A stretch of 4,208 nucleotides of DNA from IMG/VR virus record IMGVR_UViG_2690316348_000006. The stretch is one strand, 5' to 3'. Shown here in pieces: positions 1 to 4,208 of this stretch. The notes beneath the pieces were generated by a model. That model ran no database searches. It saw only the letters and a list, made by a program, of their open reading frames with translations, and was not told the origin of the DNA. The DNA comes from a virus (taxonomy: Duplodnaviria; Heunggongvirae; Uroviricota; Caudoviricetes). The translations under genes and the position numbers were made by a program. Position 1 is the first letter of the stretch. Every line of letters begins with the position of its first letter.

Positions 1-162
1 GTTGGGTTTTTCTGCTCATTATTAGCTCCTTCTGATGCCATTCTATTTCAGGAAGGAGTGTCCGTTAAACTCAGGCTACCTCAATCTAAATACTGATCTC
101 CCCCTCGCCAAAAACGAGCGTCTAAAAAATTCGAGCCGGAGGCTATTGAGCTGCCCGATTGG

Positions 163-432
163 TTGCCGGAAACACTCTGGCATGAGTGGGTCCGGTTCAG
201 ACAGGCATTGCGAAAACCGATTCGAACGGAGCAGGGCGCTAACGGGGCGATACGGGAACTGGAAAAATTCCGTCAGCAGGGTTTTACACCTGAGCAGGTG
301 ATTCGACACAGCATCGCCAATGAATACCAGGGCCTGTTCGCGCCGAAAGGTGTTCGGCCTGAGACGTTGCTCCGACAGGTTAACACCGTCTCGTTGCCGG
401 ACAGTGCGATCCCGCCAGGCTTCAGGGGGTAA
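163..432 (+). CDS. Replication initiation protein fragment (O-like / DnaT-like C-terminal domain), probably a 5'-truncated remnant. Frame is open from 97 to 432 but has no ATG; candidate starts are only CTG 151 or TTG 163.
   Basis: Frame-1 ORF ends at TAA 430-432, 6 nt before the DnaC-like start, the usual initiator-loader arrangement. The translation (LPDWLPETLWHEWVRFRQALRKPIRTEQG...FTPEQVIRHSIANEYQGLF) resembles, from memory, the conserved C-terminal domain of phage replication initiators. All three + frames carry stops within the first 96 nt (23-25, 33-35, 94-96), so no long gene enters from upstream. Confidence 0.45.
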   Translation: MPETLWHEWVRFRQALRKPIRTEQGANGAIRELEKFRQQGFTPEQVIRHSIANEYQGLFAPKGVRPETLLRQVNTVSLPDSAIPPGFRG

Positions 433-438
433 CGGACC

Positions 439-1185
439 ATGAAAAATATTGCGACAGGCGGCGTTCTGGAACGCATCCGCCGACTGACCCCGCCACATGT
501 AACCGCCCCATTCAGAACGGTAGCGGAGTGGCGCGAGTGGCAACTTGCTGAAGGCCAGAAACGTAGCGAGGAGATCAACCGCCTGAATCGCCAGTTGCGG
601 GTGGAAAAAATTCTGAATCGCTCAGGCATCCAGCCGTTGCACCGTAAATGCTCGTTTGCGAATTACCAGGTGCAGAACGACGGCCAGCGATACGCGTTAA
701 GCCAGGCGAAATCCATCGCCGATGAACTGATGACCGGGTGTACAAATTTTGCGTTCAGCGGAAAACCTGGTACCGGGAAGAACCACTTAGCGGCAGCTAT
801 CGGGAATCGCCTGCTGAAAGACGGTCAGACAGTGATTGTGGTTACCGTGGCTGATGTTATGAGCGCCCTGCACGCCAGCTATGACGACGGGCAGTCAGGC
901 GAAAAATTTTTGCGGGAGCTGTGCGAAGTGGATCTGCTGGTTCTTGATGAAATTGGCATTCAGCGCGAGACGAAAAACGAGCAGGTGGTGCTGCACCAGA
1001 TTGTTGATCGCCGGACAGCGTCGATGCGCAGCGTGGGGATGCTGACAAACCTGAACTATGAGGTGATGAAAACATTGCTCGGCGAGCGGGTGATGGATCG
1101 CATGGTCATGAACGGCGGGCGCTGGGTGAATTTTAACTGGGAGAGCTGGCGTCCGAATGTTAGCCATTCGAGGGTTGTTAAGTAG
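439..1185 (+). CDS. DnaC-family replicative helicase loader (phage replication protein, lambda P functional analog)
   Basis: 248-aa ORF with strong similarity, recalled from memory, to E. coli DnaC along its length. Walker A is FSGKPGTGKNHLAAAIG (about nt 754-804) and Walker B is LLVLDEIG; the C-terminal GERVMDRM motif is present. G-rich stretch upstream of the ATG; sits directly after the initiator fragment. Confidence 0.92.
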   Translation: MKNIATGGVLERIRRLTPPHVTAPFRTVAEWREWQLAEGQKRSEEINRLNRQLRVEKILNRSGIQPLHRKCSFANYQVQNDGQRYALSQAKSIADELMTGCTNFAFSGKPGTGKNHLAAAIGNRLLKDGQTVIVVTVADVMSALHASYDDGQSGEKFLRELCEVDLLVLDEIGIQRETKNEQVVLHQIVDRRTASMRSVGMLTNLNYEVMKTLLGERVMDRMVMNGGRWVNFNWESWRPNVSHSRVVK

Positions 1186-1199
1186 TTTCAGGAGGATTT

Positions 1200-1622
1200 A
1201 TGGCGAAACCTTTTACTCCCGAACAGCGGGAAGAACTGAAGACGCGAATTGTGGAACTCGTGCATCAGGACGGTCGGGTCACGATTCGGCAGTTGTCAGA
1301 TGAAACAGGTATCAGTCGTGCGTCTGTCGGTCGCTTATGCATAGAACTGGTCGCAAGTGGTGATGTATATAATTCTGGCTACGGCTTATTCCCGTCTGAA
1401 CAGGCTCGCAAGGACTGGCAAAGCGCCCGCAAAAAACTCTCGAGAGTAAAGGTGAGGAAACCGGTTGTTGTTGATCCGGACCTTATCTGGTCATTACCTG
1501 ACGGAGAAATACGCCGCTACGACAGGCGCCTGAATATAATCTGTCGCGAGTGCCGGAAGAGCGAAGCTATGCAGCGTGTACTGGCTTTCTATCAGGGTAA
1601 TTTTCAGGAGGCGATACTGTGA
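1200..1622 (+). CDS. Winged helix-turn-helix DNA-binding protein, function unknown
   Basis: 140-aa ORF with a strong SD (AGGAGG, 1189-1194) 5 nt upstream of the ATG. The N-terminus (RIVELVHQDGRVTIRQLSDETGISRASVGRLCIELVASGDV) has the pattern of a winged HTH. Stop TGA 1620-1622 abuts ATG 1623. Confidence 0.75.
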   Translation: MAKPFTPEQREELKTRIVELVHQDGRVTIRQLSDETGISRASVGRLCIELVASGDVYNSGYGLFPSEQARKDWQSARKKLSRVKVRKPVVVDPDLIWSLPDGEIRRYDRRLNIICRECRKSEAMQRVLAFYQGNFQEAIL

Positions 1623-1679
1623 ATGAAATTAGCTATCAGGCTTCAATTACCGCTGGCATTCGCATCAAAGGAGAGGAGC

Positions 1680-2036
1680 ATGGAAATAAAACCAGAAGAT
1701 GAGTTAAGCAATATTGTTTTATTTCCGGTAAAAGAGGATAACCCTCGTAATCAGGTTAATTTTCTTTATGAGCCATCGGAAAGACCATATTGCCATCACG
1801 CCTCTGTACGGGTTGACGAAAAAGAGCGTCAGGTCCGCTGTAAAATCTGCGGTGCGGTTGTGGAGCCGTTTGACTGGATGCTCTCTGTGGCAAAAAGAGA
1901 AACCAGACTGGCAGATGATGTAAGGCTATTGCGCCAGGAGGAACAGGAAAGGCGGAGAAATATAGAAAAGCTGATACAGATTGAGCGTAACGCGAAAGCG
2001 CGGATACGCAGGGCGACAAAATCCAGAACTGAATAA
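1680..2036 (+). CDS. Zn-ribbon plus coiled-coil protein, function unknown (alternative start ATG 1623 would add 19 aa)
   Basis: Open frame 1623-2036. ATG 1680 has a near-ideal SD (AGGAG, 1669-1673, 6-nt spacing). The protein has a C-x-HH ... C-x-x-C arrangement (PYCHHASV ... RCKICGAV) followed by a charged helical tail (RLLRQEEQERRRNIEKLIQIERNAKARIRR). Confidence 0.65.
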   Translation: MEIKPEDELSNIVLFPVKEDNPRNQVNFLYEPSERPYCHHASVRVDEKERQVRCKICGAVVEPFDWMLSVAKRETRLADDVRLLRQEEQERRRNIEKLIQIERNAKARIRRATKSRTE

Positions 2037-2183
2037 TTAAATTTAGCACTGTTAAAAATTTAATCCTTAACCGGAGGGATTTCTGCACCCTCAAATCATC
2101 AGGAGACCACCCGAAAGGGCGGGGAGCAGTCACACATCTGTTTCCGATAGCCCCGTTCTAATGCTACACTCTTTGATATTTTT

Positions 2184-2870
2184 ATGACCCCAATAAACAT
2201 ATTTATGACAGTTGCTGATTTCAAACGGCCCAAATTGGAGCTCCCAAACGGGGCAAACAAACTACTACTGCACTCTTGCTGTGCTCCATGTTCCGGTGAG
2301 GTGATGGAGGCGCTTCAGGCCTCGGGAATCGACTACACCATCTTTTTCTACAACCCGAACATTCATCCTCAGAAAGAGTATTTAATTCGTAAGGATGAGA
2401 ATATTCGCTTTGCTGAACAACACGGCGTGCCGTTTATTGATGCTGATTACGACACAGACAACTGGTTTGAACGAGCCAAAGGAATGGAATGGGAGCCCGA
2501 ACGAGGGATCCGTTGCACCATGTGTTTTGACATGCGTTTTGAGCGGACAGCGCTGTACGCCGCTGAAAATGGTTTCAGTGTGATCAGCAGTTCACTGGGC
2601 ATTTCACGCTGGAAAAATATGCAGCAGGTTAACGACTGTGGGCGGCGAGCCGTCGCGCATTATCCGGGCATGGTGTACTGGGATTATAACTGGCGCAAGC
2701 AGGGCGGCTCGTCCCGTATGATTGAAATCAGCAAGCGCGAAAAATTCTATCAGCAGGAATATTGTGGCTGTGTGTATTCTCTGCGCGATACCAATCTACA
2801 CCGCAAATCTCAGGGACGCCCTCTTATCAAAATTGGTCAACTCCACTACGGTAAAGAAGAGAAGGAGTGA
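2184..2870 (+). CDS. queH: QueH-like epoxyqueuosine reductase homolog (DUF208 family); alternative start ATG 2205
   Basis: 228-aa ORF with the N-terminal [11 protein letters not shown] motif (C32, C33, C36; nt 2277-2291) characteristic of QueH/DUF208 as recalled from memory, plus a later CxxC (C111, C114) and a CGC motif near the C-terminus. No obvious SD before either ATG. Preceded by a 147-nt intergenic gap after the replication-module operon. Confidence 0.8.
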
Positions 2871-2891
2871 TTTTATGGGGCACCTTTCTGA

Positions 2892-2921
2892 TTGATTTCA
2901 TATTGGCGAGGTAAGTAGAAT
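2892..2921 (+). promoter_or_regulatory. Putative sigma70 promoter of the hok/mok mRNA (-35 TTGATT 2892-2897, 18-nt spacer, -10 TAGAAT 2916-2921)
   Basis: Hexamers read directly from the sequence. The predicted start site (about 2927-2929) coincides with the 5' edge of the fold-back element at 2926-2939. Confidence 0.4.
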
Positions 2922-2925
2922 GACT

Positions 2926-2939
2926 GCGGGTGCTTGAGG
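2926..2939 (+). promoter_or_regulatory. hok mRNA 5' element (tac/fbi-like) complementary to the 3' end of the transcript
   Basis: GCGGGTGCTTGAGG (2926-2939) is complementary to CCTCAACGCACCCGC (3310-3324) with one bulged nucleotide, giving 14 bp. Next to it is a hairpin CTATCTGC(2940-2947)/GCAGATAG(2969-2976), analogous to the 5' hairpin of plasmid R1 hok mRNA as I recall it. Confidence 0.5.
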
Positions 2940-2976
2940 CTATCTGCTTCAGGCATGAACACCAAAAGGCAGATAG

Positions 2977-3047
2977 AGAAAAGCCCCAGTTAACATTACG
3001 CGTCCGGCAAGACGCTTAACATTAATCTGAGGCCAATTTCATGCTTT
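2977..3047 (-). ncRNA. sok: Sok-like antisense RNA (approximate boundaries)
   Basis: Minus-strand promoter candidate: -35 TTGCCT (complement of + 3079-3084), 17-bp spacer, -10 TAACCT (complement of + 3056-3061), start about 3047. The transcript would cover the mok SD (GAGG 3029-3032) and mok ATG (3041), contain a GCGTC/GACGC hairpin (3000-3015) and end in a U-rich tail (complement of AGAGAAAAG 2974-2982). Position matches the hok/sok paradigm; boundaries are inferred, not measured. Confidence 0.35.
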
Positions 3048-3253
3048 GCACATGTAGGTTAGCCTCTTACATGCCGAAAGGCAAGGAGAAGCAGGCTATG
3101 AAGCAGCAAAAGGCGATGTTAATCGCCCTGATCGTCATCTGTTTAACCGTCATAGTGACGGCACTGGTAACGAGGAAAGACCTCTGTGAGGTACGAATCC
3201 GAACCGGCCAGACGGAGGTCGCTGTCTTCGTAGACTACGAATCCAGGAAGTAA
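3041..3253 (+). CDS. mok: mok-like upstream reading frame, in frame with hok and starting 57 nt upstream (modulation of killing)
   Basis: ATG 3041 is preceded by GAGG (3029-3032) and shares the hok stop. The 57-nt in-frame extension mirrors how chromosomal mok/hok pairs are annotated in E. coli K-12, as I recall. Whether it is translated cannot be told from sequence. Confidence 0.4.
   Translation: MLCTCRLASYMPKGKEKQAMKQQKAMLIALIVICLTVIVTALVTRKDLCEVRIRTGQTEVAVFVDYESRK
3098..3253 (+). CDS. hok: Hok/Gef-family membrane toxin (type I toxin), 51 aa, closest to HokD/RelF-type
   Basis: Translation MKQQKAMLIALIVICLTVIVTALVTRKDLCEVRIRTGQTEVAVFVDYESRK matches, from memory, E. coli HokD almost exactly except for the last ~7 residues. 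SD AAGGAGAAG (3082-3090) sits 7 nt before the ATG. Has the single transmembrane helix and conserved Cys typical of Hok. Confidence 0.9.
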   Translation: MKQQKAMLIALIVICLTVIVTALVTRKDLCEVRIRTGQTEVAVFVDYESRK

Positions 3254-3309
3254 GAGTGACCGGGCGGGGAGCTGATCCCATCCCCGCCCACCTCTGATGT
3301 GTCAGGCAT

Positions 3310-3324
3310 CCTCAACGCACCCGC
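3310..3324 (+). promoter_or_regulatory. hok mRNA 3' fold-back-inhibition (fbi-like) element pairing with 2926-2939
   Basis: CCTCAACGCACCCGC is the reverse complement of the 5' element apart from one bulge. It lies between the hok stop and the terminator. CCCGC-type motifs recur at 3283-3290 and 3331-3338. Confidence 0.5.
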
Positions 3325-3330
3325 ACTTAA

Positions 3331-3376
3331 CCCGCCCATCGCTGTGATCTCTCAGCGTTTCGGCGGGTTTTTTGTT
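3331..3376 (+). terminator. Rho-independent terminator of the hok transcript
   Basis: Two-tier stem: CCCGCC (3331-3336) pairs with GGCGGG (3362-3367), and an inner CGCTG (3340-3344) pairs with CAGCG (3353-3357). Followed by TTTTTTGTTGTTT (3368-3380). Confidence 0.6.
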
Positions 3377-3393
3377 GTTTATTTCCGGTGAAT

Positions 3394-3421
3394 TTGATTC
3401 GCGCACCTTCGCAGATAGAAT
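3394..3421 (+). promoter_or_regulatory. Putative sigma70 promoter for the downstream ORFs (-35 TTGATT 3394-3399, 16-nt spacer, -10 TAGAAT 3416-3421)
   Basis: Hexamers read directly from the sequence. Lies just after the hok terminator and about 80 nt upstream of ATG 3503. The hexamers and the following GACT resemble the hok promoter at 2892-2925. Confidence 0.3.
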
Positions 3422-3502
3422 CGACTCACTTAAGTAGCGCGCAGGGAGAAGAGGGATGGACCCCGAACAGGGGAGAGCTATTTATCTGGAAGGATTCTGA
3501 AG

Positions 3503-3790
3503 ATGAAAATCGAAGAATTGCGTGAAATTTTTAGTGAAAATGGCCTCTATGCTGTGCGCGTTGAGAATGGAGCGATTGTCAGCCATTGCCGCATTAGATG
3601 TTTGCAATCTCAACAAAGGAAGAGCGGTGCTGTGTTATTTTATTTTTGTAATGGACTTCTGACGGACGGTTTTATTTTGCGTGAGGACGAATTTGTCACA
3701 TCATTACGGGTTTTGAAAGAGATTGGTTTTAAGGCTGGTTTTCTGCTTTTGCTGAAGAATAAACTCATCTACAATCTTGAGCAGGATTGA
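3503..3790 (+). CDS. Hypothetical protein, 95 aa, AT-rich orphan ORF
   Basis: ATG 3503 is preceded by GGAAGGA (3488-3494). Base composition is visibly more AT-rich than neighbouring genes. The C-terminal half is hydrophobic (GFKAGFLLLLKNKLIY). No family recognised. Confidence 0.5.
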   Translation: MKIEELREIFSENGLYAVRVENGAIVSHCRIRCLQSQQRKSGAVLFYFCNGLLTDGFILREDEFVTSLRVLKEIGFKAGFLLLLKNKLIYNLEQD

Positions 3791-3828
3791 ACTCCTGCTG
3801 TGTAACACCGTGCCACCGGAGAAAGCCG

Positions 3829-4182
3829 ATGGCACATATACAACTGGTCAAACAAACCTCTTCCGGATTACTTCTCCCGGCGACGCCGGAGAGTTGCGAT
3901 TTTCTGCATCAAATCAAAATAGGTGAGTGGATACACGCAGACTTTAAGCGTGTGTGTAACTACGCATTCCACAAGCGTTTTTTCAAACTCCTGCAACTGG
4001 GTTTCGATTACTGGACTCCGGTCGGTGGGGCGATCACGCCTCGCGAACGAAAACTGGTGTCCGGTTTCGTTGATTACCTGTGTGAATCAGTAGGCCGGGA
4101 ACATACGCCAGCTCTGAGCGAAGCCGCAGAGCAATTGAGGTGTACTGGCAATAGCGGACACTACCATTTGTTCTTTTTTTAA
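3829..4182 (+). CDS. Conserved lambdoid nin-region protein, probably YbcN/DUF1367-like, apparently C-terminally short (117 aa)
   Basis: ATG 3829 is preceded by GGAGAAA (3817-3823); the ORF-track start at 3787 is a TTG and is less likely. The motif block HADFKRVCNYAFHKRFFKLLQLGFDYWTPVGGAITPRERKLV resembles, from memory, the N-terminal region of YbcN-like proteins. The ORF ends in an atypical tail (RCTGNSGHYHLFFF) 26 nt before the window edge. Confidence 0.55.
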   Translation: MAHIQLVKQTSSGLLLPATPESCDFLHQIKIGEWIHADFKRVCNYAFHKRFFKLLQLGFDYWTPVGGAITPRERKLVSGFVDYLCESVGREHTPALSEAAEQLRCTGNSGHYHLFFF

Positions 4183-4208
4183 GCAGCCATCTGATGATAT
4201 TTTTCCCT

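Follow-up and report, generated by a model that had tools for sequence, protein, structure and literature searches.

Layout of the window

The window, i.e. the whole 4,208-nt stretch of DNA analysed here, consists of a 4052-bp phage segment lying between two directly oriented IS600 copies, and is very probably the entire contig of a short-read draft. At its left edge an IS600 element of the IS3 family contributes its left end (1-83, minus strand; 100% identity over 83 nt to Shigella sonnei IS600 copies), and at its right edge a second copy contributes its right end (4136-4208, minus strand; IRR, TGAGGTGTACTGG...; 100% identity to IS600 copies). The left end is followed on the plus strand by the 3' remnant of a prophage gene for a ydaU-like replication initiator (84-432) and an intact ydaV gene encoding a DnaC-like helicase loader (439-1185; Pfam IstB_IS21, 1.1e-19, and Bac_DnaA, 2.5e-8), which starts 6 nt past the stop codon of the remnant and whose exact protein is found in 5731 blocks of a public collection. 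Adjoining the second IS600 is an ORF (3829-4182) that is cut by this element at 4135/4136 and matches positions 1-102 of the 198 in the Pfam DUF1367 profile.

Several features typical of IS600 can be recognized at the start of the window. The terminal inverted repeat occupies about 57-83 (minus strand) and ends in ...CCTCA at 83. A minus-strand promoter-like site (68->40), the only such site in 1-600, heads into orfA, the first 19 nt of which (minus strand, ATG 19-17) lie within the window as six codons (ATGAGCAGAAAAACCCAAC at 19-1, translation MSRKTQ), with the gene continuing past the left edge. In a related locus (L003) an annotated 'IS3-like element IS600 family transposase' CDS begins on the minus strand at the equivalent of position 19, and the full transposase CDS is annotated there with a programmed frameshift. 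The inverted-repeat arms at the two edges (57-85 vs 4134-4162) are 72% complementary, with the termini ..CCTCA (83) and TGAGG.. (4136), and the IS600 copies of S. sonnei and E. coli that match both 1-83 and 4136-4208 at 100% are 1263-1264 bp in length with TG..CA ends. For positions 1-100 alone, 6267 matches to E. coli genomes were found, with a maximum of 43 in one genome, and these lie under IS600 transposase features.

The preliminary description of this DNA had called the start of the window closed, with stop codons in all three plus-strand frames within nt 1-96. This closure is indeed present (TGA 94-96 in frame 1, where it is the sole stop before TAA 430-432; TAG 23-25 in frame 2; stops at 33, 66 and 87 in frame 3), but the description overlooked the IS600 end itself, the minus-strand orfA, the out-of-frame stretch at 84-99 and a 10-bp deletion (see below). 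The closed start of the window is, to judge from these matches, the left end of a minus-strand IS600, and this element is oriented against the replication operon.

The initiator-gene remnant and its lesions

Alignment of 84-4135 with the intact loci L001 and L005 (blastn) gave 99.6% identity with one gap. These loci contain a 789-nt ORF (262 aa) between ydaT and the DnaC-like ydaV, and positions 84-432 of the window correspond to nt 431-789 of this gene minus 10 bp. The alignment proposed in the preliminary description thereby located a breakpoint, namely 83/84, inside codon D144 and right after an acidic linker encoded by a (GAGGAA)n array. Profile comparisons point to the same relationship. 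The intact 262-aa protein matches phrog_2509 'replication initiation protein' over positions 1-277 of 277 (E 1.2e-89); the fragment matches only positions 180-277 of 277 (E 1e-11), i.e. not the full length, and phrog_6451 'primosomal protein' with E 7e-36, its matches to replication-initiator and primosomal PHROGs alike falling in their C-terminal parts only. Pfam recovered no family for the fragment, and none for the intact 262-aa protein at E <= 1. The view that a C-terminal initiator fragment has here been cut from its N-terminal part is upheld by these C-terminal-only matches, together with the presence of the intact 262-aa gene in E. coli prophages and viable phages, where it invariably lies right upstream of ydaV.

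The first 16 nt of the remnant (84-99) are a relic of codons 144-149 (..LNTDL), which contains the TGA 94-96 and is out of frame with the downstream ORF. At 99-105 there is a single TCCCCCT where the intact genes have TCCCCCTAAATCCCCCT, a 10-bp deletion that arose by slippage between 7-bp direct repeats and causes the frameshift. From window 100 (P153) onward the reading is again in the native frame, and therefore 110 native codons survive (100-432, initiator residues 153-262, ending in ..NTVSLPDSAIPPGFRG with the stop at 430-432), encoding a region resembling the C-terminal domain of DnaT. It is because of the 10-bp deletion that TGA 94-96 stands in frame with the downstream ORF, and also that a spurious hybrid ORF exists (35-301, plus strand), which begins at an ATG in the IS600 end and crosses the junction into the frameshifted tail. 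No gene on record has exactly the product of this hybrid ORF. For the same reason S. sonnei 53G, whose initiator gene contains no IS, displays a 224-aa ORF (L009 9189-9863) that ends in the same tail, at the equivalent of window 301. The deletion is present in 21 of 21 Shigella-type loci (L004, L006-L015, L019, L021-L023, L026, L028-L032) and missing from L001, L005 and L027. It is the older lesion, and the gene was already frameshifted before it was cut by IS600. In the part of the initiator gene that encodes the N-terminal half, about 150 bp upstream of the window 84 position, a poly-A stretch is A6 in the intact copy and 1-3 bases longer in S. sonnei copies (L009, L006, L004 etc.), a further frameshift in the pseudogene.

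A codon scan also confirmed that there is no in-frame ATG in 97-432, those at 182 and 320 belonging to frame 2. The first in-frame alternative starts are ATT 145, CTG 151 and TTG 163. Given the base composition of the segment, the probability of finding no ATG in 111 codons is about 0.21, and the intact protein likewise has no Met across the region matching 97-432; for a random 96-nt stretch the probability of stops in all three frames is estimated at roughly 0.5. Taken singly, neither the missing ATG nor the three-frame closure is statistically unusual. With no ATG, the TGA at 94-96, the 10-bp deletion and IS600 at 83/84, the remnant has no usable start or uninterrupted frame.

Intact relatives and the lost palindromes

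In the Rac phage record the 789-nt gene bears the name ydaU; its annotation in the complete genome of phage vB_EcoS-666R9 is 'DNA replication protein O'. Both records have the same gene order as the prophage discussed here, namely cro, ydaT, initiator, ydaV, DUF977 and so on, with the same spacing to ydaV and a 3' end of the initiator gene that is 95-96% identical in nucleotide sequence to the remnant. An initiator gene lies directly upstream of ydaV, within the early-right operon, in L001, L005, L024 and L025, and the remnant occupies that position too. Unlike the Rac and vB_EcoS-666R9 genes, the window keeps codons 144-262 only, in frameshifted form, with IS600 replacing the N-terminal 143 codons.

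Three perfect 19-bp palindromes of the form GTAACGC-N5-GCGTTAC are found in the intact locus L005 (9174-9192, 9366-9384 and 9573-9591), spaced 192 and 207 bp apart, with one just upstream of the intact initiator gene and two within it; by chance, 0.09 would be expected in 20.7 kb. Copies at the equivalent positions are found in L001, L024, L025 and most S. sonnei loci, and the sites are also conserved in vB_EcoS-666R9 and the Rac record. All three fall in the lost part of the gene, and the window has none. These palindromes are possible initiator-binding or origin sites, and in intact genes they provide candidates for a phage origin that can be tested. The arrangement recalls the lambda O gene with the ori inside it, where likewise the initiator lies beside the helicase-loader gene, and symmetric repeats are found in or next to the initiator gene in the intact relatives. 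Unlike in lambda O, the palindromes are about 200 bp apart and not clustered, and their origin role is putative. As to lambda O-type status, no Pfam O-protein domain is found in the intact 262-aa protein and the 'O-like' designation comes from PHROG names only. The same source underlies the label 'origin-binding' for the N-terminal half of the initiator, which should accordingly be read as a putative one.

The surviving domain is related to the C-terminal domain of DnaT

Searches with phmmer recovered the C-terminal domain of DnaT as a relative of the fragment (PDB 2ru8, E 3e-5; 9zbt_D, DnaT residues 92-179, E 9.7e-5). The tails of the two proteins are nearly identical (NTVSLPDSAIPPGFRG in the fragment vs NTVSEPDSQIPPGFRG in DnaT), with the shared pattern NTVS.PDS.IPPGFRG. 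The NCBIfam equivalog model for DnaT (NF002770) scored 17.3 bits against a cut-off of 201, over the last 19 residues only, and since this curated model failed, the domain is regarded as homologous to the DnaT C-terminal domain and not as part of a DnaT orthologue. In the intact phage protein the PDB and NCBIfam matches cover residues 170-262 and 244-262 only. The fragment aligns to residues 92-179 of E. coli DnaT, whose C-terminal domain is known from several structures (PDB 2RU8, 6AEP, 9ZBT), and the phage version is encoded immediately upstream of a DnaC homologue. The N-terminal domain of the intact phage protein has no detected similarity to DnaT, and the overall similarity is weak (27.8 bits for the fragment).

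The DnaT C-terminal domain binds ssDNA and forms filaments (PMC13377028, PMC4132743), which in the preprimosome assemble on ssDNA of the lagging strand, and the dnaT and dnaC genes belong to one operon (PMC13377028). By analogy, the phage domain might handle ssDNA at the phage origin beside its DnaC-like partner. In Rac-type phage initiators the C-terminal domain is a homologue of the DnaT domain and has a DnaC homologue encoded beside it, an organization that mirrors the host dnaT-dnaC operon. The titles and abstracts found in the literature on YdaU/YdaV and on DnaT with DUF1376 and prophages do not address this domain relationship.

Domain architecture across relatives

A smaller homologue search yielded 21 candidates, which were mostly contig-edge partials, and architecture was therefore judged from an exhaustive HMMER search of 1.84 billion representatives, which returned 3010 relatives. 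Among the best 150 of these 3010, the domain is preceded by at least 60 residues in 128, typically starting at position 120-320 of proteins of 190-430 aa, and in 13 it begins no later than residue 10 of a short protein. One of the short matches, P0010, was examined in detail and is a fusion with frameshifted ydaV sequence, and is therefore a pseudogene product. In L020 a 399-aa DUF1376-type initiator gene shares its 3' end with window 124-438 at 95.6%. Thus, given that 128 of the best 150 relatives carry at least 60 N-terminal residues, this is not mainly a standalone family, and the short standalone homologues that the preliminary description had thought could overturn its reading are not the rule. 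Instead, it is normally a C-terminal module borne on varied N-terminal parts.

The junction at 83/84 and its Shigella relatives

At 83/84 the exact terminus of IS600 abuts initiator codon 144 (IS600|ATCTAAAT). A megablast search with window 1-1200 against 5426 complete E. coli genomes returned thousands of matches, none starting before nt 99 and none crossing 83/84. The exact 50-mer and 25-mer over the junction were not found in GTDB species representatives, nor was the 25-mer in JGI metagenomes. The junction was also absent from 32 of 32 related loci, and the contigs that carry the 118-aa variant of the window (see below) or the 89-aa ORF from TTG 163 showed only other left ends. Having been found nowhere else searched, the junction depends on the window itself for its reality.

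A same-orientation IS600 is nevertheless common at this locus. It is present at gene nt 105-107 in 7 of 9 complete or near-complete S. sonnei-type loci (L004, L007, L008, L010-L013), as well as in L028. In 6 of those 7 loci the element is simply inserted and flanked by a GGT target duplication, the usual left flank in S. sonnei being ..GGGAAGGT, and in L007 the left flank is replaced. That flank (L007 8034-8053) consists of unrelated sequence and not of the 5' stump of the gene, which shows that an IS600-adjacent rearrangement happened at this copy in another strain, one with a complete genome. The possibility that an intact initiator gene lies immediately upstream, also considered at the outset, finds no counterpart in the relatives: none was found, and of this initiator gene the DNA upstream of their IS retains just the 5' stump.

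Between the end of the resident IS600 and the position equivalent to window 84, the relatives have 328-346 bp of the gene, a spread that arises because the (GAGGAA)n array varies between 3 and 11 units. This hexanucleotide array, VNTR-like in Shigella and E. coli copies and coding for the acidic linker, is located just 5' of the window 84 position (e.g. L004 about 9610-9645, L030 about 2599-2664), and the IS600 junction of the window coincides exactly with its 3' edge. The junction may have arisen by an independent IS600 insertion or by a deletion that began at the resident IS600, 328-346 bp upstream, and reached codon 144; both stand, as the junction was found nowhere else and the other flank of the element lies outside the window. 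In dozens of S. sonnei drafts 'partial' proteins of 87-109 aa start inside the fragment (window about 100-170), which indicates that contigs break just past the variable repeat and the region of the 10-bp indel. This suggests that short-read assembly is confounded either by the repeat or by the presence of two diverged module copies.

Interpretation and alternatives

The above observations are best explained if the ORF at 97-432 is the dead 3' end of an initiator gene of the Rac (ydaU-like) type, truncated by IS600 and frameshifted, in a heavily rearranged cryptic lambdoid prophage of S. sonnei, a reading to which we assign a probability of about 0.92. Two lesions are evident from the sequence: the gene is frameshifted by the 10-bp slippage deletion in the linker (99-105), common to all Shigella copies examined, and an IS600 oriented against the operon ends at nt 83 and abuts codon 144, the N-terminal domain, the acidic linker repeat and the three palindromes being gone from this side of IS600. 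The remnant is probably untranslated, since there is no ATG and no plus-strand promoter-like site, and a pR-type transcript would have to cross the antisense IS; the scan for plus-strand promoter-like sites covered 1-600 and recovered none. Given the lesions in the initiator gene and the second IS600 cutting the DUF1367 ORF, the prophage is likely to be replication-defective. The deletion or recombination junction in a cryptic prophage that the preliminary description had envisaged can thus be equated with the IS600 terminus at 83/84.

According to Hawkey et al. 2020 (PMC7373316), IS600 belongs to the five IS that have expanded in every Shigella species and has recently been highly active in S. 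sonnei; it disrupts coding sequences and promotes deletions, and pseudogenes caused by IS are documented in Shigella. Other IS600-linked rearrangements are found at this locus among S. sonnei complete genomes. The truncation at 83/84 is a case of ordinary IS-driven prophage decay in Shigella; it is the same in kind as the known IS-interrupted pseudogenes and IS-mediated deletions, and only the position of the junction is new among the sequences searched. Its significance beyond annotation is small. For annotation, the frame 97-432 is best labeled a pseudogene fragment, and nt 1-83 the end of an IS600, rather than a new short gene.

Two of the alternatives concern the fate of the domain itself. 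We regard it as very improbable that a standalone DnaT-CTD-like protein is translated from CTG 151 or TTG 163 and keeps a function such as ssDNA binding or an interaction with YdaV or host restart. CTG and TTG are weak start codons. A GGAGG (138-142, plus strand) is positioned 8 nt before CTG 151, but in the intact gene both it and the candidate starts within 138-165 simply belong to the coding sequence (..EPEAIELPDWL..). The DnaT-CTD-like region is complete in the fragment, and hypothetical proteins have been annotated from TTG 163 (89 aa, 8 contigs) and TTG 208 (74 aa, 458 contigs). In the window, however, an antisense IS lies upstream, and 1-600 contains no plus-strand promoter-like site. 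The 13 short proteins with the domain at their start likewise speak for such a product, but they are set against the 128 of the 150 best representatives with an N-terminal extension, and the one of the short matches examined proved to be a fused pseudogene product. All Shigella copies are identical here, and hence give no signal of selection. Very unlikely, too, is the proposal that the orphan domain is still made in S. sonnei from these same codons and serves as a free ssDNA-binding or filament module hindering or aiding PriA-PriB-DnaT restart.

The other alternatives concern the origin of the junction. The preliminary description had also allowed for a module swap, in which a mosaic joint leaves the N-terminal domain and the origin encoded elsewhere. 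The domain is indeed modular in nature, as seen in the DUF1376-type gene of L020 and in N-terminal parts of very different lengths. Yet the DNA preceding nt 84 is precisely the end of IS600 and contains no phage module or other N-terminal module, and identity to the cognate 262-aa gene reaches right up to the IS end, including the 16 out-of-frame nt (84-99). With IS DNA upstream of the remnant, a module swap was rejected, its probability being practically negligible. There is also a very small probability that the join at 83/84 is an artefact of short-read assembly and that the true genome has the usual S. sonnei arrangement. In line with this, no second instance of the junction was found in any of the collections searched, contigs of many S. 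sonnei drafts begin near the variable (GAGGAA)n array, and the window resembles a whole draft contig bounded by IS600 repeats, with a 118-aa protein variant seen only on contigs under 10 kb. On the other hand, the join falls at the precise last base of IS600 (..CCTCA), and a de Bruijn mis-join would not be expected as the join shares no k-mer with the sequence replaced (..GAGGAAG). Moreover, IS600 has recently been active in S. sonnei (PMC7373316). Truncation of an already frameshifted initiator gene by IS600 hence remains the favored account of the locus.

The second IS600 and other genes of the window

The junction at 4135/4136, where the second IS600 cuts the DUF1367 ORF, recurs in S. sonnei complete genomes (locus position 13697/13698). 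For each of the two IS600 copies the window includes a single flank. In the complete genomes the element on the DUF1367 side shows no target duplication (AAT vs GTT) and is followed by an integrase fragment and modC, which indicates that the late region was rearranged or deleted through the action of IS600. Protein variants of the window are annotated in S. sonnei drafts. Relative to S. sonnei complete genomes the window differs by three substitutions only (783, 1715 and 1740) over 4125 bp. The substitution at 1740 affects the first position of a codon in an ORF encoding a 118-aa zinc-ribbon protein (1680-2036), and this variant, annotated in S. sonnei, is confined in its exact form to draft contigs under 10 kb in length.

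Between the replication genes and hok lies an intact prophage-borne homologue of the epoxyqueuosine reductase QueH (2184-2870; Pfam E 1.9e-65). Next to it is a hok/sok type I toxin-antitoxin locus that appears to be intact (2928-3253), comprising a match to the Rfam sok family (117 bits, 2928-3103) and a Hok/Gef ORF (3041-3253), which is annotated as hokD in relatives.
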